41,770 nt of DNA from an archaeon (GCA_030019325.1 JASEFB010000001.1:1-41770), one strand, 5' to 3'; counted from the first letter of the stretch, positions 1,763-34,167 are shown. Notes: generated from the letters alone by a model not told the origin. Numbers and translations are program-made.

Positions 1763-2434
1763 TCACCCATACACCTCTTTCTTCATCATCTCTCCGCCGA
1801 CGAACCGCGTTATGTAATGTGATGCTATGGTTAGGCCTTCTCTGAGTTCTTCATAAGACATGCCGGGGATGCCATAAGCAACTAAAAGTACATCCGTCGT
1901 CGTATCCGTTACTTTTGTCTCTTCCACATCACCGTGCACATAGACGCACAGTATCTTTGCTGAATCCGTTAGGACGAGCTCTTTCCCTGTCAATTTCTTT
2001 TGCCTATTCCCTATCAAAATAACCTCCTCACCCTCTCTCGAAAATCTCACTGACAACGGTGGGGCTATTCGCGCCATCTCAAAAGCACTGAACGTGAGGA
2101 GTGTCTGCACCGACGCGAGGTTGTACGCATCGACGATGGGTGATACCCTTGGCAACCCTTTATTCAACAAAATCCTTCGCAGCAATGCCTCTGACGCCGG
2201 TCTGACTTTCGTTGGATCAACACCCATTCTCCAGAAGAAGTCCCGTTGCGATCTGATCGTTCTTATATCCTTCACATCGTCAATTTTATAGGTTCTTTTT
2301 ATCTCTTCCTCAACGGTTGTTATCTCCGCGCTTATTTCGCGACTTCCTTTTTGCCTCACGCCTTGTATCTCTGCGATACCCACGCTTATCTCAAATTTTT
2401 CCCGCACGGCATCTTCTATAATGAGGCGCATCAT
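1763..2434 (-). CDS. B3/B4 tRNA-binding domain protein (PheT B3/4-like)
   Basis: 223-aa ORF. The segments RPASEALLRRILLNKGLPRVSPIVDAYNLASVQTLLTFSAF... and ...VLTDSAKILCVYVHGD resemble the standalone B3_4 domain family. Confidence 0.7.
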   Translation of the reverse strand: MMRLIIEDAVREKFEISVGIAEIQGVRQKGSREISAEITTVEEEIKRTYKIDDVKDIRTIRSQRDFFWRMGVDPTKVRPASEALLRRILLNKGLPRVSPIVDAYNLASVQTLLTFSAFEMARIAPPLSVRFSREGEEVILIGNRQKKLTGKELVLTDSAKILCVYVHGDVEETKVTDTTTDVLLVAYGIPGMSYEELREGLTIASHYITRFVGGEMMKKEVYG

Positions 2435-2446
2435 AAACCTTTCTTA

Positions 2447-2569
2447 TGTGGGGCTCCGCCCCATCACGGGCTCCGCCTGTGCCCCCGCATCGTGGGCTCC
2501 GCCCACGTCCCCGAAAACCCTGAAAGGGTTTACCAGAGGGGCTTACTCGCAAGCCCTGTAAGGGCTTAA
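2447..2569. repeat. Composite GC-rich palindromic repeat element (three GGGCTCCGCC units plus hairpins)
   Basis: The core GGGCTCCGCC occurs at 2451, 2468 and 2494. There is a hairpin AAACCCT-GAA-AGGGTTT at 2515-2531. Segments GGGGCTT (2538-2544), AAGCCCT (2551-2557) and AGGGCTT (2561-2567) can pair alternatively. A shorter copy lies at 41244-41287. Confidence 0.8.
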
Positions 2570-2580
2570 AGAAAGTTTTA

Positions 2581-2769
2581 TCAAAGAATTTCTATTACGA
2601 TTGTATGCTTCATCAGATTTATTTCCTTGATCCTTCCTTTTATCTCGCGTGTCTCGCCCAATATCCCGGTGAGTTTGATATCCTCACCATCAATGTCGAT
2701 ATGAACCACCTCTTCCATTAGTAATTCTCTTCTCCTTTCTTTTTCTATAAATACACTCGATTCGCACAT
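2581..2769 (-). CDS. CooT-family small nickel-binding protein
   Basis: 62 aa, MCESSVFIEKERRRELLMEEVVHIDIDGEDIKLTGILGETREIKGRIKEINLMKHTIVIE. The Cys2, the length and the beta-rich pattern match the CooT (PF10133) family as I remember it. Confidence 0.7.
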   Translation of the reverse strand: MCESSVFIEKERRRELLMEEVVHIDIDGEDIKLTGILGETREIKGRIKEINLMKHTIVIEIL

Positions 2770-2924
2770 AGTTTTGGATCTCCATCGTTATTCTTTACTT
2801 CATTACAGCTTATTTGTCACGGGAGATTATATTTTTGTCGTCTTTGGATTGGATTCTTCTACGTTTCTCTCAAAGTATTAAAAACTTTTTTAAGTGAAAA
2901 ATTATAATATACCATGGTGGAAAA

Positions 2925-3431
2925 ATGAGAAGTTATGCATTGAAATTGGATGAAGCGAAGAGCCTCGCAGATATATTTGAGATTGTAAAAGAAGGGGTTA
3001 GAAAAGTTATGAAGACGGGCAGGGCAGGATTAACCTTAGGATTAGCTGAGCTGAGTGGAGACCAAAATTGCTGGATAGGAGCTTTCTATCCGGTTGGATC
3101 AAATACGATTATCATGAACAAGGCACCTTTGAGAAGGATCGCTGAAACAGAGCCCCGGTTATATAATGCCTATGCCTTTCATGTATTGTTGCACGAGTAC
3201 CTCCATTCCTTGGGTTATATCGAGGAAGGAAGGGCCAGAAGTTTAGTGTACTGGATCTCGCAAGAGCTATTTGGCGAGGATCATTTAGTGACGCAGATGG
3301 CCAAGGACATGAGTAAATTCTTGCCAAATCTCACGTATCCTACTCAGGGCTATATCCCACAAAATCTTGAAGGTTTAGAGATCGAGATGGTAAAAGACTT
3401 CGATCGATCGAGTATAAACTATATTATATAA
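2925..3431 (+). CDS. Hypothetical protein with an HExxH motif (putative zinc metallopeptidase-like)
   Basis: 168-aa ORF with an AT-rich promoter region upstream. The motif HVLLHEYLHSLG contains HExxH. No family name recognised. Confidence 0.6.
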   Translation: MRSYALKLDEAKSLADIFEIVKEGVRKVMKTGRAGLTLGLAELSGDQNCWIGAFYPVGSNTIIMNKAPLRRIAETEPRLYNAYAFHVLLHEYLHSLGYIEEGRARSLVYWISQELFGEDHLVTQMAKDMSKFLPNLTYPTQGYIPQNLEGLEIEMVKDFDRSSINYII

Positions 3432-3535
3432 AATAAAAGGAGCACCCGTCTCTAAAACTCCTCCTCAGAGCTTATTTCAGTTTGCGAAAAACAAAAATAA
3501 GTCAATAAGAAAAAGATTATTAGGACGTTTGCAAA

Positions 3536-4414
3536 ATGGAGATAGAAGCGACCTATTGTGAGGCATTTGATGGGTTGGTTGCACGACTCTGCATAACCGC
3601 GGGCGATGAGAAGCGGTTGAAGCAAGCGGCTTACAATGCTACTGCATTGCCCTCGACGGTCTTTGGCGAATCAGAAGGTGGGATAGAGCGGTGGTTGAAG
3701 GAGCGCGAAACGCTCGATGGGAGAGAAGGAGCATTGATTCAACTCTGGGTGAATTATGCTGAAGGTGCCCCAAAGAAGCTTGAATACGAATTATCGAAAC
3801 GAATAAGGCAAGGGATACTGGTCGTGCCCACGACATCTGTCTTCAATGCGCTCGATTCGGCAGAGAGGATTGATACCATGGATCGAATAGGGCATTGCGG
3901 CGATGGCTATGAGACAATTGCGCAGAAGTTTGGAAGGGAGGTAATAGTGGTGCCGATAATGATGGGGGAATTTGTGATAGAACGTTATGCAGGCTATAAG
4001 AAGGGTGTGATGGGTGGGAACCTCTGGTTCTTGTGCGAAAGCGTAGAGTCCGCCTTAGAAGCGGGTGAAAAGGCACTTGCCGCAATAAGCGATGTAGAAG
4101 GAGCTATTACTCCGTTTGATATTTGCGCAGCGGGCTCTAAACCAGAAACGAACTATCCGGAGATAGGCCCCACGACTAATCACCCCTATTGCCCCACGTT
4201 AAAGCGGGGAATTAACGGATCGAGGGTCCCCGACGGTGTAACATGTATTCCCGAGATCGTTATAAATGGCGTTTCGCTTGAGTCGGTAAAAGAAGCGATG
4301 AGAGCAGCGATGGAGCACGTACGAGATGTTAAAGGCCTGGTGAAGATCTCAGCAGGGAATTACGGTGGTAAATTGGGGAGCTATAAGATTTTTTTGAAGG
4401 AGCTTATGGGATGA
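3536..4414 (+). CDS. ftr: Formylmethanofuran--tetrahydromethanopterin N-formyltransferase
   Basis: 292 aa. The N-terminus (MEIEATYCEAFDGLVARLCITA), VVPIMMGEFVIE, GGNLWFLCES, INGVSLESVKEAM and the C-terminal KISAGNYGGKLGSYKIFLKEL all match conserved Ftr blocks. Confidence 0.9.
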   Translation: MEIEATYCEAFDGLVARLCITAGDEKRLKQAAYNATALPSTVFGESEGGIERWLKERETLDGREGALIQLWVNYAEGAPKKLEYELSKRIRQGILVVPTTSVFNALDSAERIDTMDRIGHCGDGYETIAQKFGREVIVVPIMMGEFVIERYAGYKKGVMGGNLWFLCESVESALEAGEKALAAISDVEGAITPFDICAAGSKPETNYPEIGPTTNHPYCPTLKRGINGSRVPDGVTCIPEIVINGVSLESVKEAMRAAMEHVRDVKGLVKISAGNYGGKLGSYKIFLKELMG

Positions 4415-4454
4415 GTTCTGCCCTCGCCACGCGCAGAACAAAGAGGCTGTCCTG

Positions 4455-4750
4455 TAACTGAAGAGCTGGATATTGAAGTTATAGACATGGCTGTGAATGT
4501 GGATCATGTTCATCTTTTCATAAAATATCCGCCGAAGTATTCATTAAGTTGGATAGCGAAGTGGATAAAAGGGAGGAGTAGTAAGCTTTTGAGGGATAGA
4601 TTCTCGCATCTTAAAGAATGGTGTCCGGATCATCTGTGGGCGCCGAGTTGCTATCATGGTTTGATGGGGACATGGGTTGGAAGTGGTAGGAAGATATATA
4701 CGATGCAAATTATTTTAGGGCAAAACTTAAATATGCTTAAGCGCATATAG
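4455..4750 (+). pseudogene. tnpA: IS200/IS605-family TnpA (Y1 transposase) relic lacking the N-terminal third
   Basis: EELDIEVIDMAVNVDHVHLFIKYPPKYSLSWIAKWIKGRSSKLLRDRFSHLKEWCPDHLWAPSCYHG matches the HUH (HVH) core and C-terminal blocks of TnpA. The first ~50 residues are missing and no TnpB or element ends were seen. Confidence 0.7.
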
Positions 4751-4774
4751 GGAAAAGGATGGTTGTTTAGAAGA

Positions 4775-5191
4775 ATGTGCAATTTTATTATAGGCTGTAT
4801 TATAAGGATATTTGAATATATTATAGGTGTAGGTGTTGTCACAGTTGTAGCTTTAGTAGTTGCTTTTAAAGCTCAAGAAAGGTACAAGGATTATTCTATT
4901 AAAAAAGCTGTTAAAGCATATTTGACCCAATATATCATAGATTGGACAGAAATACGTAAGAAAGAGGAGTTTAAGTCAGAAGAAAGAACAATATTAGCAA
5001 GGGATGGTAAAAATATAACAGAAACTATTATGTCCCGATCTACTTTGTTATTCGATGATATTATCAGGGAGGCAAAAGCAATTGGAGATGAAATAGAAGG
5101 ATTATCAAAAATTACAATTACAATAGAAAAAGGAGATGAACTTGCAGAAAGAGCAAAAAAATGTGCAGCAAGGATAGGGGGTCGGAGATAG
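4775..5191 (+). CDS. Hypothetical membrane-anchored protein (island gene 1)
   Basis: An ATG at 4775 lies inside the TTG-started track ORF. There is an N-terminal TM helix (IIGVGVVTVVALVVAF) followed by a charged helical tail. Very AT-rich. Confidence 0.5.
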   Translation: MCNFIIGCIIRIFEYIIGVGVVTVVALVVAFKAQERYKDYSIKKAVKAYLTQYIIDWTEIRKKEEFKSEERTILARDGKNITETIMSRSTLLFDDIIREAKAIGDEIEGLSKITITIEKGDELAERAKKCAARIGGRR

Positions 5192-5288
5192 AAGGGATGA
5201 AAATTCAGGCAGATACCTTAATGGCGTGCAAAAGAAAGAAGTTTTAAATATAAATAAACAAAAAGATAGGGTAGAGGTGTAAGGGTTA

Positions 5289-6041
5289 ATGGATGAAATA
5301 AAGAAAATCACAAAATTAAGCGACTTCATAGAATTCCTGGACTCTGTAAAGGATGCTATTCATACGTGGGGCATTACACGTATTGATTTTTACCACGAAT
5401 TAGATGAAAAGCAGAAGGAAGAAATTATAGAAATAGGAGAGAAATATGATTTACCATTTGAAGAAGTTGAAGTTGTTGAAGATGTTGAGGATGAGGATTT
5501 TGAAAGTTGTTTAATTAATGATGAAATGATAGGCTTTTTGATGGATAGACTTGTTTATTCTGAAAGAGAATATCATATGGATCGCTTAACTCGATTTTTA
5601 AAAGATTTAGATAAGTTTAATGTTAAATCTTTAGCAACAGGTATCACTTTTCTGTTTTATAAAAGCGATCTTCTAGAAAATATGAACGATTTGATAGAAT
5701 TTTTAAGTAAAAATGCCGCTAAAACTGCCGAAGATGTTGGTGTGAGTTTGGGTGGGATCTCATGGATTTCTTTAAATTGCGAATTGGGTGCCAGATGGAG
5801 ACTTGATCTTAAGAAAATAGCAGAGAAATATGATCTCACCGATGAAATTGGCTTTGAAATTGGTTCTAATAATATAGATTTTACGATGGATACCCTTACT
5901 TATTTAGGAAAAATTGGGGGAATAGAAATATATGACATGTCTCTTTTGATTCGGTTCCTAAAAGATATAGCCAGAAAATTTAATCCTGTAGAGTTTAATA
6001 TTCCGGGGTTTACTTTTAAATTTGAGAAAATAGGAGAATAA
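5289..6041 (+). CDS. Hypothetical acidic protein with four internal FL-x-x-L type repeats (island gene 2)
   Basis: 250 aa. Recurrent modules are IEFLDSVKD, LTRFLKDLDKF, LIEFLSKNAAK and LIRFLKDIARKF, each followed by a beta-like segment. Its stop is 2 nt before the next start codon. Confidence 0.6.
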   Translation: MDEIKKITKLSDFIEFLDSVKDAIHTWGITRIDFYHELDEKQKEEIIEIGEKYDLPFEEVEVVEDVEDEDFESCLINDEMIGFLMDRLVYSEREYHMDRLTRFLKDLDKFNVKSLATGITFLFYKSDLLENMNDLIEFLSKNAAKTAEDVGVSLGGISWISLNCELGARWRLDLKKIAEKYDLTDEIGFEIGSNNIDFTMDTLTYLGKIGGIEIYDMSLLIRFLKDIARKFNPVEFNIPGFTFKFEKIGE

Positions 6042-6043
6042 GT

Positions 6044-6529
6044 ATGAAAAAATACGATGTTGCTTTAGCTCTCGCAAAAACAGGAAATGATAGCAAACTC
6101 GCTTTAGCTCGGATGCTCATTGATATGCTGGACTTAAATGAGTTATATGAGCGATTGGATTACGGAGGGATGTTCGGAGATCTCAAGAATCTAAGTGATG
6201 AGGAGTATTTTGACTTATTAGGAATAGATCCGAAAGAAAGAGCAGAAAGACTTGAAGATATAGATGTAGATGATCTTAGAAATTATGACGTGGCGCTTGC
6301 GTTAGCTACTGCTGGAAATATAGAACAGGCAAGACGAGTTATGGAGTTAACTAATCCAAAGAAAGAATTAGATGAATCCGATTTTGCGAATCTTGAGATA
6401 CTTCCCGAGACCATAGATGCAGCAGTGGAAAAAATGATGGAAGTTAGAGAAAGATTAGAAAGGGAGAAATTACGAGAAAAGCTTAAGAATATCTTGTTAG
6501 AAAGCATTATGCAGAAAAGCCAAAAATAA
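6044..6529 (+). CDS. Hypothetical protein with a duplicated YDVALALA-x-x-GN motif (island gene 3)
   Basis: 161 aa. KKYDVALALAKTGN (residues 2-14) and RNYDVALALATAGN (89-101) are conserved at the protein level but differ at synonymous positions. The next start codon follows 1 nt after the stop. Confidence 0.6.
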   Translation: MKKYDVALALAKTGNDSKLALARMLIDMLDLNELYERLDYGGMFGDLKNLSDEEYFDLLGIDPKERAERLEDIDVDDLRNYDVALALATAGNIEQARRVMELTNPKKELDESDFANLEILPETIDAAVEKMMEVRERLEREKLREKLKNILLESIMQKSQK

Positions 6530-6530
6530 A

Positions 6531-7388
6531 ATGGAGTTTGAAAAAGCCTTTGGAGAGGGTAAGACTATAGGATATAGGGATCTTATAGAAGCTACGGATA
6601 GAATAGTGCCAAATGAGCATCTATCTAGGGATCGCGAATCACTACTTAGGATTTTTAATGATTATACTACAATCTCTAAATACATAATTGAAACTTTTAA
6701 TCCCATTGAAAGAGAGATATTCCTCAGTGTATTCGAACCTTTTCCTGAAATCAAATATAACTCAGCGCTGTTAAAAAATGGGATGACTATAGCCCTTAAG
6801 GCTATTAAAGAAGGATATTCTCAATACTTTTTGAGTGATTACTTCTTAGAACATCTCAAACAAAAAGGTTTGTCCATTGTTCGTTTTGGTACTGAAAGAG
6901 AGAATCCTTCCTATTTCACTATTGAGGTAGATACTCGAGAACGAGAATTTAATCCTGCAAAATTAGAGTTGAAATTTGAAACAAAAACGTTCCATCACGA
7001 GTATAAAGGAAGTGGTTGGATAGAGAGGGAGAGCGACATTATAACAAATGTTGAAGGTCTTGCAGGTGTTACAAAGAAAGCGTATAATTATATTGTAAAG
7101 GGTACGACAAATGGATGGGAATTTTTAATTGACCACTTAAGAAATAATTTTTCCAGAGGAATAGCTCCATACAATCTCAAAACGATAATAGATTGCTATT
7201 ATAAGGGAAACGATATAATTGCAGGAGTTAGAGTCCATAAAGAGAAAGGAATGGAGATATTTTTAACTAAAGAGGCTTATGAATATATGAAAGAGCAAAA
7301 ATTCTCTATTCTTCGGGGTAAAAGAAGTGAAGAAAGGAATGATTGGGAAGAGTTAGAACTATTATTTCATCCAGAGGTGGCAATATGA
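6531..7388 (+). CDS. Hypothetical protein (island gene 4)
   Basis: 285-aa ORF with no recognisable motifs. Its stop overlaps the next start codon (ATGA at 7385-7388). Confidence 0.6.
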   Translation: MEFEKAFGEGKTIGYRDLIEATDRIVPNEHLSRDRESLLRIFNDYTTISKYIIETFNPIEREIFLSVFEPFPEIKYNSALLKNGMTIALKAIKEGYSQYFLSDYFLEHLKQKGLSIVRFGTERENPSYFTIEVDTREREFNPAKLELKFETKTFHHEYKGSGWIERESDIITNVEGLAGVTKKAYNYIVKGTTNGWEFLIDHLRNNFSRGIAPYNLKTIIDCYYKGNDIIAGVRVHKEKGMEIFLTKEAYEYMKEQKFSILRGKRSEERNDWEELELLFHPEVAI

Positions 7389-8203
7389 ATCTGAGATATT
7401 ACAGCAGTGAAAGGTGGGATTTTGAATTGAAAGACCTCTTTTATGTGATGAACCTTCTAAACAAGGTTAATGAAAGAGTTTGTCCTGTGGAGGTTATTCT
7501 GGATAAAAGCGAGGAAGAGATTTGGAAGAATGATATGCTGCCACAAACAAGAGTGATTAAGAAAAATACAGGTAAAACTGCTGCGGAATGGCTAAAATCC
7601 GGGAGTGGCAATCTTTATGTATATGGAACTTTGGCTGTGGTCGAAAATGGTGCTGTCCAATGGATCACAAAATACGAAGGAGTGAAAGAGACTCTGGAAG
7701 ATATCTTAGAGAACCCAGAAAAGGGAATAGAAAATCTTCTTGATGAGATAAAAGAGAAGCCAAAAGATGAAAATGCAGTCCTAAATAATTTCATCCAATC
7801 AGGCTTAATTCGGGGACAATCAAAAAGGGAGGTTGAAGTTGGAATAAAGCATTTAGAAGAGAGGTATAAAGAAAGGGGATGGAATGAGAAAGACTATAAT
7901 TCAGCTAAGAACTTAGTTGCAAAGAAGATAGACCTTGTTATAGAGAATGAGGATGAAATATGGTTAATTGAAGGGAAGTCAGAATTTGAATCTAAAAAAG
8001 CTGAAGAGGCATTAGGACAAATATTATTATATGAAGAGCTTTACCATATAGACCATAATCCTGAGAAGACAATTAGAAAAGCGGTAGTATTTGGAGAGTC
8101 ATCAAATCCACACCTTTTTGAATCCCTTGGAGAAATTAGCTTGGTAGAAAAAGCATTTAAAAGACACGAAATAAAAGTATTCATAGAAGGAAGGGATTTC
8201 TAA
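7385..8203 (+). CDS. Protein with a C-terminal NucS/RecB-like PD-(D/E)xK nuclease domain (island gene 5)
   Basis: The ATG at 7385 overlaps the upstream stop. The C-terminus reads KIDLVIENEDEIWLIEGKSE...EALGQILLY, which gives D, ExK and QxxxY (7931-8032), the catalytic pattern of the DUF91/NucS and RecB nuclease families. The N-terminal ~150 aa are unassigned. Confidence 0.65.
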   Translation: MNLRYYSSERWDFELKDLFYVMNLLNKVNERVCPVEVILDKSEEEIWKNDMLPQTRVIKKNTGKTAAEWLKSGSGNLYVYGTLAVVENGAVQWITKYEGVKETLEDILENPEKGIENLLDEIKEKPKDENAVLNNFIQSGLIRGQSKREVEVGIKHLEERYKERGWNEKDYNSAKNLVAKKIDLVIENEDEIWLIEGKSEFESKKAEEALGQILLYEELYHIDHNPEKTIRKAVVFGESSNPHLFESLGEISLVEKAFKRHEIKVFIEGRDF

Positions 8204-8218
8204 AGACGAGTGCCACGT

Positions 8219-8291
8219 GCCGCCGTAACTCAGTTGGTAGAGTGCCCGGCTGTTAACCGGATTGTCACAGGTTCGAGTCCTGTCGGCGGCG
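8219..8291 (+). tRNA. tRNA-Asn: tRNA-Asn (anticodon GUU)
   Basis: Cloverleaf by hand: acceptor GCCGCCG/CGGCGGC, D arm ACTC-AGTTGGTA-GAGT, anticodon loop CTGTTAA (GTT at 8252-8254), T arm ACAGG-TTCGAGT-CCTGT, discriminator G. No encoded CCA. Confidence 0.9.
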
Positions 8292-8475
8292 TTGCGGCTC
8301 CTCTCCAACCAACGCTTTATTTTTGGGTAGCCGTAAAGTGCTTTGAACAGGTGTTCTTTCTACTTAATGTCTTTTAAATGGCAGACCCATAACACCTATT
8401 TTTGCAAAAATTTTTGCTTATTCAAAAAAGCAGGCAGAGGAGGTGGCTCACCCGCCAAAGAGAGGAGTTTGAAAG

Positions 8476-8637
8476 ATGGGTATGGCTACGGATACTCACG
8501 ATGTTGTGAAAAAGGGAAAAAAAGAAAAATGGGAAAAAGTTAAACTGAAAGAAGTCTTGAGGAATCCCAAATTCTTAGGTAAGACCATTCGATTAGGTGA
8601 TAAGATTTTTGAAGTGAAAGGAGTGATGAAAGAGTAG
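8476..8637 (+). CDS. Possible 53-aa small basic protein
   Basis: MGMATDTHDVVKKGKKEKWEKVKLKEVLRNPKFLGKTIRLGDKIFEVKGVMKE. A GAGGAG lies about 9 nt upstream of the ATG. Below the track cutoff; no family recognised. Confidence 0.3.
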   Translation: MGMATDTHDVVKKGKKEKWEKVKLKEVLRNPKFLGKTIRLGDKIFEVKGVMKE

Positions 8638-8742
8638 GAATAAATTAGACCGAAGAAAGAGGCGTTGCACTAGAATTTCTTAAGCGTTTATTTAACATTT
8701 ATACATGCTAAAAATTAATAACTAAAAGGGAGGTGAAAGAAA

Positions 8743-8970
8743 ATGGTAAAGGTGTTTACTCTGGTAAGCGCAGAGGTTGGCAAAGCAAAAGAGGTGCTGA
8801 GTGGGCTTAAGAAGACAGGCTTGGAAGTGTATCCTTTGTTTGGTGAGTACGATTTCATCGTGATAGCTGAAACGGTGGATCTCAAAACAGCGACCGCAAC
8901 GATACTTGAGAAGATTCAAGCCGTCAAGGGAGTGACCAGAACAAGGACTTTGGTGGGCGCCGAGATTTGA
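8743..8970 (+). CDS. Standalone Lrp/AsnC-type ligand-binding (RAM) domain protein
   Basis: 75 aa. The sequence VKVFTLVSAEVGKAKEVLSGLKKTGLEVYPLFGEYDFIVIAETVDLKTATATILEKIQAVKGVTRTRTLV fits the AsnC_trans_reg domain pattern. Confidence 0.8.
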   Translation: MVKVFTLVSAEVGKAKEVLSGLKKTGLEVYPLFGEYDFIVIAETVDLKTATATILEKIQAVKGVTRTRTLVGAEI

Positions 8971-9031
8971 CTTGACGTAAACCGTGAAACTTTAACCAGG
9001 GGGGTACGGGCTCTTTCCTATCCTCTGTTAA

Positions 9032-9039
9032 TTTTTTTT
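9032..9039 (+). terminator. Oligo-T tract, candidate archaeal terminator
   Basis: A run of eight T about 60 nt downstream of the RAM-domain gene stop. Confidence 0.3.
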
Positions 9040-9110
9040 CGCATCTGTGCTTCTACAAAGATACCATATAATTCAGAGTGCGGTGGATTGTGAAATTTCC
9101 CCAATACATG

Positions 9111-10040
9111 TCACATAACTACGATAACCAAAAGAATCATGCAGACTTTTGCAGTAATACTACTCAGATACATTATAGCGGTTATTTTCATACCGAGCTT
9201 CCCAAACAAAGAGATATTCGTGGAAAGACTGTATTTCAGATATACCAGCGTTATCACTAAGATACTTCCAATAAGTAGTGTTATAAGAGCTTGTTTTGCA
9301 GTGATCACTTCTTTTGCAAGCAGCGCGGCAATAATAGCGTAGCCTGCGGAGAAATGAGCTAAATCTGCAATGAGCGCGGTTATTACCTCCCCGGGTAAAT
9401 CTAATACCCGTAGAATGGGATCGAAGAGTATACTGATATAGTTCATAATTCCACGTGTGAAGAGGAAATCGATGACCAAGAATGCCACCACCATTATGGG
9501 AATTATCCTTATTAATGTGGTAGACGATTTTTTCAGTGCCGTCTTCAGCTTTTGACTAGAGGGTGTTTTCGTGGCATTCACATAGATCTCTTCTTCGCTA
9601 CACGTTAGTGGAGGAAAGTTGACTTTGGCATACATGAAAGCGGCAAAGGATTGTAGAAATGCGGCGAGAAACCCAAGCGCAATGTAGATGCTCCCGATGA
9701 AAGGACCTAAGAGCACGAGTGCGATCGGTACGTGCACTCTGAACAGCGATTCACCAACGACAATAGGAAACGTGCTCATCACCAACGTGAGTATCGTTTC
9801 CTTATCACCAATTTTACCCTCGTGATAGAACCCTGCCAAGGTTGATTTCCCCGCGGTGGGATTGAAGAAGGAAGCGAAGAGAGAAACTGCACCCTCTTTC
9901 GGGAGGTTTGATGCCCGGCAGAACGGTCGTATGAGCGGTGATAATTTTCTCATCGAGTCACTTTCAAGCACGATGTTCGCAATGATCACACCTGCGGTAA
10001 TGAGGAGTACAGATCGGATTAAATAGGTCGCTGTGGTCAT
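9111..10040 (-). CDS. Nucleoside-recognition (Gate) domain membrane protein
   Basis: 309 aa and polytopic. The segment LSPLIRPFCRASNLPKEGAVSLFASFFNPTAGKSTLAGFY resembles the Gate domain of FeoB-C/SpmA-like proteins. Confidence 0.6.
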   Translation of the reverse strand: MTTATYLIRSVLLITAGVIIANIVLESDSMRKLSPLIRPFCRASNLPKEGAVSLFASFFNPTAGKSTLAGFYHEGKIGDKETILTLVMSTFPIVVGESLFRVHVPIALVLLGPFIGSIYIALGFLAAFLQSFAAFMYAKVNFPPLTCSEEEIYVNATKTPSSQKLKTALKKSSTTLIRIIPIMVVAFLVIDFLFTRGIMNYISILFDPILRVLDLPGEVITALIADLAHFSAGYAIIAALLAKEVITAKQALITLLIGSILVITLVYLKYSLSTNISLFGKLGMKITAIMYLSSITAKVCMILLVIVVM

Positions 10041-10178
10041 TGGTTTATTACTAATGTAGCAGTTCGAGGAGATATAAAAAATAGAGGGATAGCGCTGAAG
10101 TCCTCAAAAAACAAAGCAGAGAATTGGAAAATCTAAAGCACTGTTTTTAGATTGGCTCAATCAATAATATATTATCAA

Positions 10179-11426
10179 TCACACATCTAACCTGCTCTGT
10201 TTTGTTCTTCGCTCTGCAAGCTTACTCCATCTCCGGTAATCCTTCAATTTCCATGCACCTGCCTTCTTCAGGTCGGGAATCCCACATGCAGGCTCGTTTT
10301 CCGAGAAGTGGCATTGTAAACAATTCCCATCACAACCTGTAACAGGTTCAAACTGCTTCCCATCACCCTGTCTTACATAAATCGGTATATCAAAGCCTTC
10401 GCAATTCCATGAACTCATAAACTCCTTATTCAACCCTACGACCTTCTTCCCACCGAGCGACTCGAACTCCATACAGAGCCCCATCGTCACGTTATGCTCA
10501 GCACAAATCTCGCGTACCATTCCAAACAACTTTCTCCGGTAGTCTATGGAGGCGTGAAGACGCCCACCGAGCTCTTCAGTATACAAGTGGTTCAGCATCC
10601 GTTTCGGAATTCCAGCCCTTTTCTCCAGTTCATCACCTATTTCATACTTCAGTGCTTTGGGAATATCCATACAACTCGTTATTATGTGCCCTGCACCGGC
10701 TTCAACCACCTTCCGCACTAATTCTTCCAATTCCTCTCTTTTATCCGTCACGTAGGGGATTATTGGGTCAATTCGGCACACGGCGAACTTATCCTCATTG
10801 GCAAGCCGTTCTATATTACGCACCAGTTCGTCTGTTGCTGCACCACCTGCCATCAGTCGCTCTCTTTTATCTTCATCCAGCGTGAGAATAGAGACTTCTC
10901 CAAAGGAGTGCTCTTGTTTTTTCATCAATTTTAGGGACTTTTCGCTTATTCTCCCTTTTGTGGTGAGCTTCACCGGGATATTGCGATCGACAAACTCTTT
11001 TATTATCTTCTCACTCAACTGGTATCGTTCATTTATCGGCTGGAACGGGTCGGTAACCGGTGAGAGGAACCCGCAGCTTGCGATGTTGAGCCCGTCCAAT
11101 TGCCGCGCGACTCTTGTATCAAAATCCTTGAATACTGCAACGACCCCTTTCTCTCGAAAGAGCCTGAAATAGCCACCTAACGCATGTGAATAACAGAAGA
11201 GGCAGTTATGGCTACACCCGTTATACGGGTTTATCAAAAGCTTCTCGGCGGTGCATTCTCTATTTCCATAAGGTTCAACTCCATTCCACCAGCCGTGTAA
11301 CTCCTTATTCGAATCAACCAGGATATGAGGTACCGGGGTTTGTATAACCTCAAATTCTTTGGTTCTTCGTCCAAATTCAATGGTTATCGCAGTAGTTTTG
11401 GTATCCATATCTAAAATAGCGTACAC
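10179..11426 (-). CDS. Radical SAM protein (SplB/COG1533-like)
   Basis: INPYNGCSHNCLFCYSH carries the CxxxCxxC cluster motif in the context typical of DNA-photolyase-like radical SAM enzymes. There is a Cys-rich C-terminus (GCDGNCLQCH...ACG). Confidence 0.7.
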   Translation of the reverse strand: MYAILDMDTKTTAITIEFGRRTKEFEVIQTPVPHILVDSNKELHGWWNGVEPYGNRECTAEKLLINPYNGCSHNCLFCYSHALGGYFRLFREKGVVAVFKDFDTRVARQLDGLNIASCGFLSPVTDPFQPINERYQLSEKIIKEFVDRNIPVKLTTKGRISEKSLKLMKKQEHSFGEVSILTLDEDKRERLMAGGAATDELVRNIERLANEDKFAVCRIDPIIPYVTDKREELEELVRKVVEAGAGHIITSCMDIPKALKYEIGDELEKRAGIPKRMLNHLYTEELGGRLHASIDYRRKLFGMVREICAEHNVTMGLCMEFESLGGKKVVGLNKEFMSSWNCEGFDIPIYVRQGDGKQFEPVTGCDGNCLQCHFSENEPACGIPDLKKAGAWKLKDYRRWSKLAERRTKQSRLDV

Positions 11427-13616: not shown

Positions 13617-13853
13617 ATGTTCATGTTGGATAAAGACATGCAGATTTTGCGTGTTATAGCTAATTCATCGTCACAAACTATCTCTCACGAGCACATATTT
13701 TTGGAAGCGAAAAAGACGTCAAGTATGGAGGAAGACCAGGTCGAGGAATCCTTAAAGACCCTCGAATTGAATGGTTTGGTAGGAAGACGGGGGGATTTGT
13801 ATTATACGACGACTAAAGGGAGCATAATTGCCAGGAAAGGGATGTCATTATGA
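13617..13853 (+). CDS. Small putative winged-helix protein
   Basis: 78 aa, AT-rich. EESLKTLELNGLVGRRGDLYYTTTKG looks like a wHTH wing. It overlaps the next gene by 4 nt (ATGA). Confidence 0.4.
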   Translation: MFMLDKDMQILRVIANSSSQTISHEHIFLEAKKTSSMEEDQVEESLKTLELNGLVGRRGDLYYTTTKGSIIARKGMSL

Positions 13854-14461
13854 CGATGGAGTTTATCAATTATTTAGGAAGCAACTATCCTTACTTCATG
13901 ATTTTTCTCATGATACTCTTCGTGTGGGATTTAATAGATCTTTACGTTGACCGTAAAAATTATCGGTTCTTGCGAATGCAAACATTTTGGGTTTATTACT
14001 TAGCACGAGGTTTTTTTGGTATTATCATTATGGAATTGGTGTGGACGTTAAACCTGGTTAATTTAACTAATAAATACCTCTTTGCTACGGTCACTCCTTT
14101 TCTCTTTACCACATTCTTACAGAATTTAGTTGTTGCGATCGGAGGTCAGGAAGTAAATATTCGAGATGTATTTCTGAAATTCAGGGATTCGATTTTGGAG
14201 AGTCTTGCATCTGCTCTTAATATAGAACGCAGTGAAGCGAAATCGCTGTTATCTAACTCACACATAAGCATAGATAGTTTAAGAGAAGAATGTCGTATTG
14301 TCCTGGGGAAGAAGGATTTTGAGAAGTTTGAATCAACATTAAATGAAACGAATGCAAAAGATCTCACATTGGAGTATATAGATAAAATAGTTAACCATCT
14401 TCCACCAGATGAAGTAAATAAGCATGTAAAGAACATAATTAAGAGATATACCAAGAAATGA
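13850..14461 (+). CDS. Hypothetical membrane protein (3-4 TM plus a soluble tail)
   Basis: 203-aa ORF translationally coupled to 13617-13853. No motif recognised. Confidence 0.5.
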   Translation: MTMEFINYLGSNYPYFMIFLMILFVWDLIDLYVDRKNYRFLRMQTFWVYYLARGFFGIIIMELVWTLNLVNLTNKYLFATVTPFLFTTFLQNLVVAIGGQEVNIRDVFLKFRDSILESLASALNIERSEAKSLLSNSHISIDSLREECRIVLGKKDFEKFESTLNETNAKDLTLEYIDKIVNHLPPDEVNKHVKNIIKRYTKK

Positions 14462-15949: not shown

Positions 15950-16369
15950 ATGAACGACTCTCGTTTTTTCCTCGACGCTGCTTATGTGCTGGCGTTACTT
16001 AATCCTCACGATTTCTATCACAAACAAGCCAACGCACTATTTCCTTCGGTGCGTGTTGCGCACGAGGTGTGGATAACAGAAGCGGTATTGGTTGAAATAG
16101 GCAATGCACTGGCACGTTCAAATCGGTTTACTGCTGTTGCATTCATCAATAGCTGTTACGTCACCCCTAATGTCACTGTAGTTTCAGTGGATACCGCATT
16201 GGTGCATCGTGCAATAGACTTTTACCAAAGTCGAGAGGATAAAGAGTGGGGATTGACTGACTGCATTTCCTTTATTGTGATGGAAGATCATGGCTTAACA
16301 GATGCTTTAACGACAGACGAGCATTTTGAACAAGCAGGCTTCAGAGCACTGTTACGGGAAGATAGGTAA
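15950..16369 (+). CDS. vapC: PIN-domain toxin (VapC)
   Basis: FFLDAAYVLALL (first Asp), ITEAVLVEIGN (Glu) and LTDCISFIVMEDHGLTDALTTDEHFEQAGF (distal Asp residues) are the PIN acidic residues in canonical order. Confidence 0.8.
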   Translation: MNDSRFFLDAAYVLALLNPHDFYHKQANALFPSVRVAHEVWITEAVLVEIGNALARSNRFTAVAFINSCYVTPNVTVVSVDTALVHRAIDFYQSREDKEWGLTDCISFIVMEDHGLTDALTTDEHFEQAGFRALLREDR

Positions 16370-16752: not shown

Positions 16753-17076
16753 ATGATTTTGAAGCGGGAAATGATGAAAATGAATGACGAACTTGAAAGG
16801 ATCATAAAAACGCTCGCAGCGCATAAGGAAGAGTTAAAGCAAAGATACAAGGTCAAAGAGATCGGTATCTTTGGCTCTGTGGTGAGGGGTGAGCAGAAGG
16901 GAACAAGCGATGTAGATATACTGGTGGAGTTTGAAAAACCAATTGGATTTTTCACGTTTTTAGAACTCGAAGAATATTTAAGCAATTTACTGGGGCTTAA
17001 GGTTGATCTTGTCTCGAAAAAGGCTTTGAAACCGAATATAGGGAGGTATATATTGCAGGAGGTAATACCGATATGA
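16753..17076 (+). CDS. mntA: MNT-type nucleotidyltransferase antitoxin (MntA)
   Basis: GIFGSVVRGEQKGTSDVDILVEF is the GS-x(9-10)-DxD Pol-beta NTase motif. It overlaps the DUF86 gene by 4 nt. The true start may be an internal Met. Confidence 0.85.
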   Translation: MILKREMMKMNDELERIIKTLAAHKEELKQRYKVKEIGIFGSVVRGEQKGTSDVDILVEFEKPIGFFTFLELEEYLSNLLGLKVDLVSKKALKPNIGRYILQEVIPI

Positions 17077-17423
17077 AAAGGGACTTCAAAGATTATATCC
17101 AGGATATTTTATCATCTCTAGAGGAGGTTGAGGATTTTACAGAGGGATTGGATTTTGAAGACTTCTTAAGAGACAGAAAAACAATAAATGCAGTTATAAG
17201 GAGCCTTGAAATTATTGGTGAAGCTGCAAAGAAGATACCAGAAGATTTAAGAAATGGACATCCTGAGATGCCATGGAAGCGTATGACGGGTATGAGGGAT
17301 AAACTTATCCATGAGTATCATGGAGTGGATCTTGAAATAGTCTGGACAGTCATTAAAGAAGAGCTGCCCCCGCTGAAACCCCTGATAGAAAAGGTATTAA
17401 AGGAAATAGAGGGGAAGGAATGA
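17073..17423 (+). CDS. hepT: DUF86/HEPN toxin (HepT)
   Basis: The MKRDFKDYIQDIL start, AVIRSLEIIGEAAKKIP and GMRDKLIHEY (the Rx4-6H HEPN motif) are typical of DUF86. Confidence 0.85.
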   Translation: MKRDFKDYIQDILSSLEEVEDFTEGLDFEDFLRDRKTINAVIRSLEIIGEAAKKIPEDLRNGHPEMPWKRMTGMRDKLIHEYHGVDLEIVWTVIKEELPPLKPLIEKVLKEIEGKE

Positions 17424-19332: not shown

Positions 19333-19372
19333 ATCGTCAGATTATCGTCAGATTTGCGTCCAGATCGACGCA
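19333..19372. repeat. Two tandem 11-mers (ATCGTCAGATT) followed by the palindrome TGCGTC-CAGATC-GACGCA
   Basis: Read directly. The same 11-mer array recurs at 21519-21548. Confidence 0.8.
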
Positions 19373-21518: not shown

Positions 21519-21548
21519 ATCGTCAGATTATCGTCAGATTATCGTCAG
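21519..21548. repeat. 2.7 tandem copies of the 11-mer ATCGTCAGATT, starting 8 nt after the Fic stop
   Basis: Read directly. It is followed by AATGACAAA, the inverse of TTTGTCATT at ~19377. Confidence 0.8.
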
Positions 21549-27377: not shown

Positions 27378-27553
27378 AGCTCTTCTGCCTTTATGAAGTC
27401 AGAGAGATCGTGATGGCCCACAGCTCCCCTCGCTTCCCTCACCATCTTCTCCTCCTCGCTCGTTAGCAGAGAATCCTCCACAAGTTCCGCTAAGACTCCT
27501 TTGATATATTCCACATCCTGCCTCAAAATCCTTATCTCTTCTTCCAGAGCCAT
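27374..27553 (-). CDS. Antitoxin of the RelE module (59 aa)
   Basis: My translation from the ATG at 27553 is MALEEEIRILRQDVEYIKGVLAELVEDSLLTSEEEKMVREARGAVGHHDLSDFIKAEEL. Its stop overlaps the toxin ATG (ATGA). It is in a different frame from track ORF 27399-27677. Confidence 0.6.
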   Translation of the reverse strand: MALEEEIRILRQDVEYIKGVLAELVEDSLLTSEEEKMVREARGAVGHHDLSDFIKAEEL

Positions 27554-27629
27554 GTTTGTTTGTTTGTTTGTTTGTTTGTTTGTTTGTTTGTTTGTTTGTT
27601 TGTTTGTTTGTTTGTTTGTTTGTTTGTTT
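27554..27629. repeat. Perfect tetranucleotide microsatellite, (GTTT)19 on + and (AAAC)19 on -
   Basis: Counted directly: 76 nt with no interruptions. It abuts the antitoxin ATG (27553) on one side and AAAAGGAG (minus strand) on the other. Confidence 0.95.
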
Positions 27630-31911: not shown

Positions 31912-34167
31912 TCAGTCCAATTCTCCATTAATTGGCTCTCTCGGTGTCCAACTATACATTCCTCTTGCCTCCGGGGGATATTTTGCTGGTTTTGAAATAT
32001 CAATTCCCTCGCGTAGGCCAAGGTGGTGTGTGAGGTAAAGTGCTTGAATCACGAGATCAATAGCTCCTAGAACCGAGTGCCGATCAGTTGAAAGTTCAAA
32101 TACCTTCATTTGCTTCTTAAGATACTTTTTAATCGTATTCGCAAGATCATTATATGGTGGGCATCGTAGAATGACAGCTATTTTATTGCTGCGGTGGCGA
32201 TAAGCACTGATATATCGGCCGTGAGTGAAATTTTTTAGTTCGGAATATTCAATAGTTGCGATTCCTCCTTCGACGAATTTTGATTCCAAATCAACAAGTG
32301 CTGGTCTAGCCCAACCACTTCCAAGAGCAATAAAATGATAGTTGCTTGGTGATCCCGAAAGACCTTCACACATTTCACGTGCTCGGAAGTCGGCCGCCTT
32401 AAAGATGCTTGAAAGATTTTTATACTCAAATAGCTGATCTAAATCCTCTTTAAGGTTATTAGGGGCGAAAATAGCCAGAAGTGATCCCAGAGTAGCGAGA
32501 TACCCTACTGTAGCCACAAAGCCTTGGCGATGTTTTGAAACAATGAATACTTGCCAGCCAGAATCACCAGCACGCTTAGAAAGTTCTGAATCAGGATCGC
32601 TGGTAAAAACTAACCCATTAGTCACTCTTAGTGCACGAAGTTTATCAAAAGATCGCAAAATGTCAGGATTGGATCCTCTATATGAAATTAAAACAGGTAG
32701 TATTTCATTTAAAGGTGTGCTAATTGACTCTAACTCATAAGGAGGGATAGCTCTAGCAGGGTTACCACGAAGTGAAAAAAGTAATTGTTCACCAAACACC
32801 GCAGCACTGAAGGAACCACCGGAACCAATAAACAAGAGGGGTGTAGATTTAATCATAGATTCAATCTCATCTCTCTTTTTTGAGTTGAGTAACTGGAATT
32901 GTACCTGCGAATAAGTCTCACTCATCGGAATAAGCGCTTGCGCTAACTCCGCTCCAAATTCATTTTTTCGGGGGTATTTACTTGATATTAGCGATTTTTT
33001 TCGATTTGTGCCCATTACTTTCGGCTCGCCACAGATATGACATACACCATACGCTTGGAATCTAAAAGGAAACTTAAAAGGTTCTGGTATACCAGAGCTA
33101 GGCGGTAATGAGGAGAAAGCTTGTCCGTTGTAGGCAACCTCGGCCCCAAGTGTGAGTGCTTCAGCTGCGTGAACTTTGTTAGTAGCTAAAACCCTTGGAT
33201 AACTCCTAGCTCCGTAGAAGCTGCAGCTCAAAGAGGCTAATCCTTGCGCTACAGAAAGCATCTTTTCTTCAAACCCAATTTCAAGTCTTGCAGACTTGTT
33301 GAGGATTTGAGCTAAAATCGCACCGATTAAAATATCCCCAGCACCAGCGGTGTCACATAATCTCAAGCATTTTATAGCTGGAAATTCAAACTTTTGAAAC
33401 TCCGATCTTGGTCCACGGATGAACCCGTAAACACCTTGTTCGCTGTCGGTTACAATTAAAAGTTTAATTCGCTCAAATCGTTGCGAAAAAGCATCCAAAG
33501 ACTCAAATTTATTTTGTGACTCAAGTCTATTCCGTTTAAGAAAGTTTTTGAATATACGCGAGTTTACCTTAACCATCGTGGCAATTGCAATGAGTTCCTG
33601 AGCTTTCGATCTTGAGCTTTCAAAGCTATCAAAAGAAAAATCAAAAGAAACAAATTTATTAGCTTTTGAAGCCGTTCTTGCTAGCATAAGTGAGCTATCA
33701 TTTGCACGGTCTGTATGTACGATTTGGCAGTGTCGAACTGTTTCCAACATTTCTTTAGTAATATCCCATTTATTAAGAACAACACTGCGACTTATAGGAG
33801 CGCCGCAATCTGGGCATTTATGTAAGAACTTATGTGAATGGTTGGATTCAGAAATAACCTGGAAATACTGCCTAGATCTCCTAAACTGACCAGCTCCACC
33901 TCTCTGTATTAACCATCGAGTATTTACTCCAAAGTTTTTAATGTCTTGCTTAATTATTTCAGACTGAATATCATTTCCAATTGCTCCAATAATGGCGGTT
34001 TTGAAACCCAAAGTTCCAAGAAACGACAATGTATTACCTACTGATCCACCTCCTGCACTTCCCAAATATTTAAGCGATGTTTTCTGGTTAGGAGTAATAG
34101 TTTTCAAGAAAATATGATCCACCGCAACGAGTCCCATGCCAAGAACATCAAGCTTCATTTTCATCAC
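31912..34167 (-). CDS. PfkB-family kinase fused to a double SIS (phosphosugar-binding) domain
   Basis: GSAGGGSVGNT (GG motif) and CDTAGAGD (33334-33354) are PfkB signatures. Cys pairs are CPDC (residues 118-121) and CHIC (376-379). The C-terminal ~300 aa carry two SIS-type repeats, LLFIGSGGSFSAAVFGE and HFIALGSGWARPALVDLESKFVE (about 32008-32850). Confidence 0.75.
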   Translation of the reverse strand: MMKMKLDVLGMGLVAVDHIFLKTITPNQKTSLKYLGSAGGGSVGNTLSFLGTLGFKTAIIGAIGNDIQSEIIKQDIKNFGVNTRWLIQRGGAGQFRRSRQYFQVISESNHSHKFLHKCPDCGAPISRSVVLNKWDITKEMLETVRHCQIVHTDRANDSSLMLARTASKANKFVSFDFSFDSFESSRSKAQELIAIATMVKVNSRIFKNFLKRNRLESQNKFESLDAFSQRFERIKLLIVTDSEQGVYGFIRGPRSEFQKFEFPAIKCLRLCDTAGAGDILIGAILAQILNKSARLEIGFEEKMLSVAQGLASLSCSFYGARSYPRVLATNKVHAAEALTLGAEVAYNGQAFSSLPPSSGIPEPFKFPFRFQAYGVCHICGEPKVMGTNRKKSLISSKYPRKNEFGAELAQALIPMSETYSQVQFQLLNSKKRDEIESMIKSTPLLFIGSGGSFSAAVFGEQLLFSLRGNPARAIPPYELESISTPLNEILPVLISYRGSNPDILRSFDKLRALRVTNGLVFTSDPDSELSKRAGDSGWQVFIVSKHRQGFVATVGYLATLGSLLAIFAPNNLKEDLDQLFEYKNLSSIFKAADFRAREMCEGLSGSPSNYHFIALGSGWARPALVDLESKFVEGGIATIEYSELKNFTHGRYISAYRHRSNKIAVILRCPPYNDLANTIKKYLKKQMKVFELSTDRHSVLGAIDLVIQALYLTHHLGLREGIDISKPAKYPPEARGMYSWTPREPINGELD

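Follow-up and report, generated by a model that had tools for sequence, protein, structure and literature searches.

A mobile gene cassette with a predicted nuclease, inserted ahead of tRNA-Asn in an ANME-1 archaeon

A stretch of 41,770 nucleotides from an archaeal genome (GCA_030019325.1 JASEFB010000001.1:1-41770; at its full length referred to here as the window) contains five consecutive open reading frames (ORFs), g1 to g5, on the plus strand at 4775-8203, with a transposase fragment on the left and a tRNA-Asn gene on the right. We found that the last four ORFs, together with a promoter-like element in front of them, form a cassette of about 3 kb that was acquired horizontally, recurs with sharp borders in other contigs, and ends in a gene for a probable PD-(D/E)xK nuclease of the uncharacterised archaeal family DUF8045. 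Our leading reading, held tentatively, is that of a mobile nuclease-based accessory cassette, most likely serving in defence against invading DNA. The features of the region are as follows; coordinates with a w prefix in the text refer to the whole window, and L-numbers are labels of the fetched comparison contigs or loci.

4468..4750, plus strand: TnpA fragment, a 5'-truncated IS200/IS605-type Y1 transposase (Pfam Y1_Tnp), at the left end of a 3,734-nt segment specific to the window
4763 (TTG) or 4775 (ATG)..5191, plus strand: g1, 138 amino acids (aa), ORF call
5229..5256, plus strand: left cassette border with an element resembling a B recognition element and TATA box (BRE/TATA-like), from the start of similarity in other loci and a reading of the sequence
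5289..6041, plus strand: g2, 250 aa, ORF call
6044..6529, plus strand: g3, 161 aa, ORF call
6531..7388, plus strand: g4, 285 aa, ORF call
7385..8203, plus strand: g5, 272 aa, ORF call with DUF8045 annotation
8148..8166, plus strand: BRE/TATA-like element inside the 3' end of g5, read by eye
8204..8217, plus strand: host spacer of 14 nt at the right insertion junction, matching the empty-site genome L012
8218..8292, plus strand: tRNA-Asn (GTT), a host gene (ARAGORN; Rfam tRNA, 68.8 bits)

The host was assigned to ANME-1 (anaerobic methanotrophic archaea; Methanophagales) by its Ftr protein, of which the best genome matches were in L011 (91%), L012 (Methanophagales archaeon Kmv05, 89%) and L013 (ANME-1-THS, 85%). 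In all three of these closest relatives, ftr and tRNA-Asn were only 81-144 nt apart, and the cassette was absent. An earlier reading of the window from its sequence alone (the sequence-only reading) had supposed that the segment was horizontally acquired and had singled out this interval, which thus proved empty in each relative.

The comparison with L012 set the limits of the insertion. Window 2877-4467 aligned with L012 9327-10932 (91%), and window 8202-10051 with L012 11004-12872 (89%); synteny extended to both sides, and only 71 nt separated the two blocks in L012. The blastn alignment broke at 4467/4468, and similarity was back at w8202. This indicated that 4468-8201 is specific to the window, and by parsimony we interpreted these 3,734 nt as an insertion that replaced 71 nt in the window lineage. 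The 71-nt stretch is common to L011, L012 and L013, holds a BRE/TATA-like element ahead of tRNA-Asn, and is absent from the window. The spacer at 8204-8217 is identical in L012 and near-identical in L011 and in another contig, L092. A deletion instead of an insertion was considered and rejected; comparison by eye of the 71-nt segment with the 3' end of g5 gave only an AT-rich, promoter-like similarity.

The composition of the inserted segment was foreign to the window, as had been suggested from a single line counted by hand. The GC content was 28.3% at 5401-5460 and 49.6% in ftr, and 34.5% over 4468-8201 against 42.6% in the remaining window. The segment had the lowest GC of all 3.7-kb windows (minimum elsewhere 39.1%, mean 42.2%, standard deviation 1.8), about four standard deviations below the mean. 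GC at third codon positions (GC3) was 20-32% in g1-g5 and 44-61% in most flanking genes; three other ORFs of the window (13850-14461, 31912-34167 and 34148-36058) had GC3 of 31-36%. The composition of the cassette departed from its flanks also in L002, L004, L005 and L007, where it was given as AT-poorer. Horizontal acquisition was supported by the empty sites in the three closest relatives, the foreign composition, and the presence of the same cassette elsewhere.

Two observations concern the relatives themselves. L011 (DYFG01000198.1) is a 2.2-kb contig binned as 'Nitrosotalea sp.', with the closest ftr (91%) and tRNA-Asn in the ANME-1 arrangement, and is probably a mis-binned ANME-1 contig. 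L013 (1700-10000) has a different extra segment of 8.3 kb between a 168-aa gene and ftr, with genes for an ABC transporter, an S-layer-like protein, and ArsR-like and CBS proteins; a 219-aa ORF at L013 8800-9459 has a D...ELK...QALEY pattern by eye and no Pfam match. In view of this different segment, insertions may recur in the ftr region.

The five ORFs were far beyond chance, since plus-strand frames of 138 aa or more added up to 1146 codons, and none of 500 shuffles gave more than 139. The tight packing that the sequence-only reading had described was borne out by the ORF coordinates, with 2 nt between g2 and g3, 1 nt between g3 and g4, and a 4-nt ATGA overlap of g4 and g5. Its single five-gene operon did not hold: g1 is set apart from g2 by 97 nt, which contain a BRE/TATA-like element, and was found only in the window, so that the conserved unit is the promoter and g2-g5.

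The recurring unit corresponds to 5230-8203 and consists of the BRE/TATA-like element followed by g2-g3-g4-g5. This element, AAAGAAAGAAGTTTTAAATATAAATA, precedes the start codon of g2 by some 35 nt and is presumably the cassette's own promoter. The unit was seen in at least five genomic contexts besides the window, with sharp borders. L132, L133 and L134 aligned to window 5230-8247/8271 at 88% nucleotide identity and ran into tRNA-Asn, and their left neighbour, unlike that in the window, was a 146-aa gene on the opposite strand. The left border at w5230 was identical in L132-134 and L004, and the right border was the g5 stop. L135 carried the same cassette with yet another left flank. In L005 and L136, both of which begin inside the cassette, the right border was kept with another right flank and no tRNA.

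Other contexts held parts of the unit. In L002/L003, g3-g4-g5 followed a gene for a TPR protein of 495 aa, and the flanking genes were those of DUF2240 and ribosomal protein S8e. L006 had g4-g5 with g3 inverted downstream. In L007, g4-g5 lay between a DUF7986 gene and HicAB, and g5 was C-terminally altered. In L008-L010, g4-g5 stood alone, adjoining an IS240 transposase, an integrase and Cas2. The search for synteny foreseen by the sequence-only reading therefore succeeded in part: a g2-g5 or g4-g5 unit occurred in other contigs, none was found among viruses, phages and plasmids, and g1 was found nowhere else.

A family of short, GC-rich palindromic intergenic repeats (GGGGCTCCGCCCC...AAGCCCTGTAAGGGCTT) was also noted, with 87-96% identity between unrelated contigs. 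The sites are window 2432-2585 and 41244-41288, L004:5149-5194 and 10834-10911, L011:122-166, and L110:6-49. These look like a family of repetitive extragenic palindromic (REP) elements or miniature inverted-repeat transposable elements (MITEs) of these archaea, and suggest that L004 came from a related host.

The invariant core of the cassette appears from these loci to be g4 and g5. The 4-nt overlap between them was kept in most distinct loci; the called overlap was 1 nt in L136 and 46 nt in L007. With a hidden Markov model, every g4 found stood next to a g5 homologue with an identity of 47% or more, directly upstream of it. Homologues were compared with the window copy for the ratio of nonsynonymous to synonymous substitution rates (dN/dS), which was 0.13-0.39 for g3-g5 (0.17-0.39 for g3 and 0.23-0.27 for g4) and 0.51 for g2. 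These values point to purifying selection on g3-g5, with g2 evolving fastest, and thus to cassette genes that are expressed and constrained. The distribution was patchy, with filled, empty and decayed alleles. Both core proteins were rare: 5.8 billion proteins contained 9 clusters of g4 and 8 of g5. The metagenome scan used the narrower alignment, the broader one being too divergent; a word-indexed search with the profile of a 44-member g5 family gave 12 proteins and no further long contigs.

The g5 protein and its homologues carry the Pfam annotation PF26193 (PF26193.1; DUF8045), as precomputed in the protein database. It consists of an N-terminal domain of unknown function (residues about 1-127) and a C-terminal nuclease domain (residues about 128-272). 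The sequence-only reading had placed a D/ExK/QxxxY catalytic signature at the end of g5, and the residues were found there as read: D183, E196-x-K198 and Q212-xxx-Y216, with E149 as a further residue of the motif set. D183, E196, K198, Q212 and Y216 were invariant in 7 to 10 close homologues; among 44 distant family members D183 was invariant, and E196 and Q212 were at least 90% conserved.

Profile and structure searches pointed in the same direction. PDDEXK_9 matched g5 with 18.9 bits against a cut-off of 25.5 (E 0.0015), PADLOC Cas4 matched with E 0.0017, and PDDEXK_1 and NERD matched also weakly. A transitive link was provided by stand-alone relatives of the nuclease domain, which match NERD at E 2.3e-7. 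Structures were modelled with AlphaFold2 (AF2) from shallow alignments and compared with the PDB by Foldseek. The top matches of g5 were predominantly PD-(D/E)xK nucleases (AddA, RecB, MGME1, RecE, Cas4 SSO0001, bunyaviral cap-snatching endonucleases and McrC), with a best E of 3.9e-3 and a template modelling (TM) score of at most 0.35. We concluded that the C-terminal domain probably adopts a PD-(D/E)xK nuclease fold of the RecB/Cas4 type.

An exhaustive profile search extended the g5 family to 216 representatives at E <=1e-3 and 60 at E <=1e-10. Proteins of one group are 260-320 aa long and have two domains, with the 'LRYY' domain at the N-terminus; the other group consists of stand-alone nuclease domains of about 130 aa, plus fusions to winged helix-turn-helix (wHTH), EVE, CDC48_N or zinc ribbons. 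The profile of g5 homologues matched P0026 at E 4.9e-28 over residues 38-267, with both domains aligning; P0026 (WP_125672941.1, from Candidatus Methanodesulfokora washburnensis) is a two-domain protein named 'DUF8045 domain-containing protein' in UniRef. With DUF8045 proteins, g5 shares the whole layout: the 'LRYY...' domain, a helical linker and the D/ExK/QxxxY nuclease domain. It differs in that its clade is small and divergent (at most about 33% identity to other members) and alone is seen with g4 and g2/g3. Matches of two family members to Sp-DndD covered a 20-residue stretch at E 0.009 and were dropped. In the literature we met no mention of DUF8045 or PF26193, and nothing specific on mobile elements and defence in ANME-1.

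Of the NucS/RecB-like nuclease proposed by the sequence-only reading, the PD-(D/E)xK nuclease of RecB/NucS type stood, on motifs, weak profiles and Foldseek, and a NucS orthologue did not. Like NucS/EndoMS (DUF91), g5 is an archaeal two-domain protein with a C-terminal RecB-like nuclease and the same motif set. However, it gave no match to NucS at E up to 1, and NucS_C was matched by one of the 44 family members (E 0.005). NucS is a vertically inherited housekeeping gene, whereas g5 is rare, mobile and AT-rich. The DUF8045 protein g5 is thus not NucS, because the N-terminal domain of NucS is absent and g5 is not conserved. The signature E...D...ExK...QxxxY is shared with nucleases of the RecB/Cas4/AddB type (including NERD and PDDEXK_9), but their helicase partner and adjoining cas genes are absent in the window. 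Cas4 itself was set aside since g5 has a single non-conserved cysteine, which makes a four-cysteine Fe-S cluster impossible, and since no cas genes flank the cassette in the window; only L008 has Cas2, about 3 kb away.

The remaining cassette proteins gave fewer clues. The PDB sequence search returned nothing for the profiles of g5, g4 and the 44-member family, nor for g2 alone. For g4, nothing was found in Pfam, NCBIfam, PHROGs, PADLOC, PDB sequences, or by Foldseek in the PDB or BFVD. A degenerate paralogue of the g5 nuclease domain was considered for g4 and rejected (hhalign probability 0.3%).

Both g2 and g3 turned out to be acidic repeat proteins, as had been read. The former has an isoelectric point (pI) of 4.5 and two repeats of about 120 aa (internal duplication, E 3e-9); the latter is helical, with a pI of 4.6 and two 'NYDVALALATAGN' (YDVALALA) repeats. 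Homologues of g2 were present only in L005, L132-135 and the relic in L004, with the TPR protein in its place in L002, and we regard it from this distribution as a variable accessory gene. A relation between g2 and that TPR protein was rejected for lack of similarity. With homologues in L002/3, L005, L132-135, L006 (opposite strand) and the L004 relic, and none in L007 and L008, g3 would be a frequent accessory gene.

The genes to the left of the cassette were of another kind. The protein encoded by g1 is basic (pI 9; GC3 20%), and its first 30 or so residues are hydrophobic (hydropathy >2), in agreement with the membrane anchor claimed for it. It had no family match and no homologue in any fetched locus or in IMG/VR; kinship with the membrane/coiled-coil protein upstream of the nuclease in L094, or with a 77-aa gene in L002, was rejected, there being no similarity. 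The TnpA relic was genuine: Y1_Tnp matched at E 6.5e-14 (ORF 4487-4750), or 1.4e-16 if translated from 4415, over about profile positions 34-104 of 121, and the N-terminal part and upstream start were absent. An intact Y1 transposase, expected if an IS200/IS605 transposon had been the vehicle, is thus not present. Since neither g1 nor such a fragment has a counterpart in any other fetched locus, both appear to be lineage-specific passengers outside the conserved cassette.

At the right end, tRNA-Asn (8218) starts 14 nt after the g5 stop, and the same junction was found in two decayed copies. L004 is a decayed L132-type locus with two internal deletions (w5411-6279 and w6378-7781); besides the promoter, 41 codons of g2 and part of g3 survive. 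At L004:4477-4992, residues 78-110 of g3 continue in frame into residues 132-272 of g5, its complete nuclease domain, giving a 171-aa ORF that lies 15 nt from tRNA-Asn. The relic in L092 contains only residues 141-272 of g5, without a start codon, 14 nt from tRNA-Asn, and a HicB-HicA fusion follows it. The end of the cassette is thus found directly before tRNA-Asn in two host backgrounds, which differ in spacer and outer flanks: the window and L092 have the spacer AGACGAGTGCCAC(G/T), which they share with the empty L012, and L004 and L132-134 have AGGTGAGTGTTGGCG. The 171-aa fusion ORF of L004 resembles many stand-alone relatives of the g5 nuclease domain, of about 130-150 aa.

Since the native promoter-like region was replaced, a new source of tRNA-Asn transcription is needed. 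A BRE/TATA-like element, GAAAAAGCATTTAAAAGAC, lies at 8148-8166 inside the last g5 codons; its distance from the tRNA is similar to that of the native L012 element AAAAAACCTTTTAAATAAC, which the window lacks. The tRNA could also be reached by read-through from the cassette, because a T-run is absent between the g5 stop and tRNA-Asn. Transcription of tRNA-Asn would now start from the candidate promoter GAAAAAGCATTTAAAAGAC or come by such read-through. A candidate tRNA promoter in the 3' end of g5 could be the reason why both relics retain this end. The Rfam scan of 4000-9000 gave nothing besides tRNA-Asn.

We favour defence against invading DNA, tentatively, because the cassette is patchy and rare, has a foreign composition and sharp borders, encodes a constrained nuclease with a coupled partner, and lies among defence-like neighbours. 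These neighbours are HicAB, adjoining the cassette in L007 and the relic in L092; the IS240 transposase, integrase and Cas2 in L008; and a methylase near a distant DUF8045 member in L094. Its gain, movement and loss would follow the pattern of other defence cassettes. The translationally coupled g4 and g5 would probably form a complex in which g5 supplies the DNA nuclease domain, controlled or targeted by its own N-terminal domain and by g4, and the acidic repeat proteins g2 and g3 would be exchangeable accessory or regulatory subunits. Transfer of the tRNA-Asn-linked copies from one related lineage to another probably went through homologous recombination, with the highly conserved tRNA gene as the anchor on the right and an illegitimate joint on the left; this would also account for the truncated transposase gene and g1 that were carried along in the window. 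Site-specific insertion is a possible alternative.

Several results count against this interpretation. No significant Pfam, NCBIfam, PADLOC or PHROGs model was found for g1-g4, and g5 reached no curated cut-off in these collections. The AF2 model of g4 was poor, with a predicted local distance difference test (pLDDT) score of 53, so that g4 is structurally blank. That of g5 was of low confidence (mean pLDDT 48; 58-82 in the core, residues 145-235), and its fold is for this reason read from motifs and weak matches. The neighbour evidence is anecdotal and comes from a handful of short contigs. In L095 and L099, distant DUF8045 proteins stand on their own in a housekeeping neighbourhood that lacks g4; a defensive role therefore need not extend to the whole family. 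Finally, the borders lack an explanation: no recombinase that would account for their sharpness was found, and att-type direct repeats, terminal repeats, target duplication and a partial tRNA copy were not convincing at the insertion borders.

That no named system matches, as the sequence-only reading had said, was upheld by the Pfam, NCBIfam, PADLOC and PHROGs searches. In PADLOC-DB 2.0 only sub-significant matches appeared (Csx23 0.051, Drt8 0.011 and the Cas4 match given above). In Shedu (SduA, DUF4263), a C-terminal PD-(D/E)xK nuclease follows a variable N-terminal domain thought to sense or restrain. The domain order and working logic of g5 are alike, as is the patchy, mobile, island-like genomic behaviour. 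The cassette differs in having the obligate g4 and up to two accessory proteins, and no PADLOC or Pfam match to Shedu models was found. A type II restriction-modification system is not indicated by the cassette, which contains no methyltransferase; a methylase was present only near the distant relative in L094.

The locus in L094 (687-4047) deserves a description of its own. The distant DUF8045 member there (33% identical to g5) is on the same strand as, and 1.5 kb downstream of, an N6/N4 DNA methylase gene. A 155-aa membrane/coiled-coil ORF and a 96-aa ORF lie between the two, in a possible restriction-modification-like arrangement.

A more specific form of the defence reading is somewhat unlikely in our estimate. 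It holds that g4-g5, with exchangeable g2/g3, is an undescribed archaeal defence system, in which the orphan protein g4 licenses a DUF8045 nuclease and which travels as a recombinase-free, promoter-bearing cassette that supplies a tRNA transcription signal. If true, this would give the DUF8045 family its first function. It would also mean that the cassette could settle before an essential tRNA gene, and would explain the survival of the 3' end in decayed copies.

A selfish addiction or homing cassette is a rival reading that we consider unlikely. Here g5 would cut cassette-free genomes or alleles, or kill cells that lose the cassette, while g4 (possibly with g2/g3) restrains it; the nuclease would thereby help the cassette to be kept, and to be copied into the same site ahead of tRNA-Asn, while the host gains nothing. 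The recurrence of the cassette 14-15 nt before tRNA-Asn in two backgrounds (window/L092 and L132-134/L004) fits this, as do the sharp borders at promoter and stop codon with no recombinase gene and the tight coupling of g4 and g5. On the other hand, the cassette is also present at at least four or five unrelated sites, which a site-specific enzyme leaves unexplained, and a 3-kb unit of four genes is unusual for homing genes. As for addiction, the L004 relic lost g4 and kept an open nuclease-domain ORF, and L007 keeps g4 with a C-terminally altered g5. This argues that there is no strict toxin-antitoxin dependency.

A remnant of a virus or plasmid is more doubtful still. On this account g4-g5 would have served the element in recombination or replication, as an exonuclease like lambda-Exo, RecE or Cas4 with a partner such as an annealing protein, and would have stayed beside a tRNA gene while the remainder of the element decayed. 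The position beside a tRNA gene, the transposase fragment and the unrelated AT-rich g1 on the left, the RecE, MGME1 and Cas4 structures among the Foldseek matches of g5, and the integrase and IS element beside g4-g5 in L008 would agree with it. However, IMG/VR contained no relatives of g1-g5, INPHARED phages and PLSDB plasmids (searched by tblastn for g4 and g5) contained none of these two, and PHROGs gave no significant match. No integrase was found among the ORFs of 4468-8201, and no repeat pairs the left end with tRNA-Asn. The insertion is on the 5' side of the tRNA and not in its 3' part, and in many contexts the cassette behaves independently, with a promoter of its own.

The same features set the insertion apart from the genomic islands found at tRNA genes. 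As in such islands, foreign DNA borders on a tRNA gene, and its opposite end has a transposase relic. The difference is that the insertion is upstream of the tRNA 5' end and has replaced the promoter-like region, and that there is no integrase, duplicated tRNA segment or direct repeats here.

Ordinary chromosomal DNA-repair genes (a NucS/EndoMS- or RecB-like nuclease with helpers) that are AT-rich by chance are very improbable and largely refuted: the motifs are common to NucS and RecB, the one distant member matches NucS_C, and distant DUF8045 proteins lie among housekeeping genes, but the cassette is absent at the orthologous site in the three nearest relatives, forms 8-9 clusters in the 5.8 billion proteins, has variable context, decays to relics, and lacks the NucS N-terminal domain.

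Some other features of the window were recorded. A PIN-domain gene (15950-16369) and a HepT-like ribonuclease gene (17073-17423), of toxin-antitoxin type, lie 8-9 kb downstream of the cassette. The 203-aa ORF at 13850-14461 (34% GC, no Pfam match) lies among housekeeping genes and, unlike the cassette, is conserved in L012 (95% aa identity). Between tRNA-Asn and an AsnC-type 75-aa gene (8743-8970), there is a lysine-rich 53-aa ORF (8476-8637) whose DNA sequence is conserved in L012 and L013, and which is perhaps a genuine small gene. At 27553-27629 lies a perfect (TGTT)x19 microsatellite, and the 11-nt unit ATCGTCAGATT is repeated in tandem 2-2.7 times at 19333-19354 and 21519-21548, 2.2 kb apart.

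Nuclease-bearing mobile accessory cassettes are a familiar category. This one has orphan partners, an uncharacterised nuclease family and, unusually, a position in which it replaces a promoter-like region of a tRNA gene. ANME-1 archaea carry out much of the marine anaerobic oxidation of methane and are uncultured, so that their accessory genes are known only from sequence. With two to four genes in 1.7-3 kb, the cassette is compact and experimentally portable. It is a candidate for a new module, either selfish or of nuclease-based immunity, and offers a first functional handle on the DUF8045 family. It is also a natural example of a cassette that replaces a tRNA promoter-like region, of which filled, empty and decayed alleles can be compared. 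Even if it is merely a decaying passenger, it would still be a marker of recent gene flow between ANME-1 lineages.

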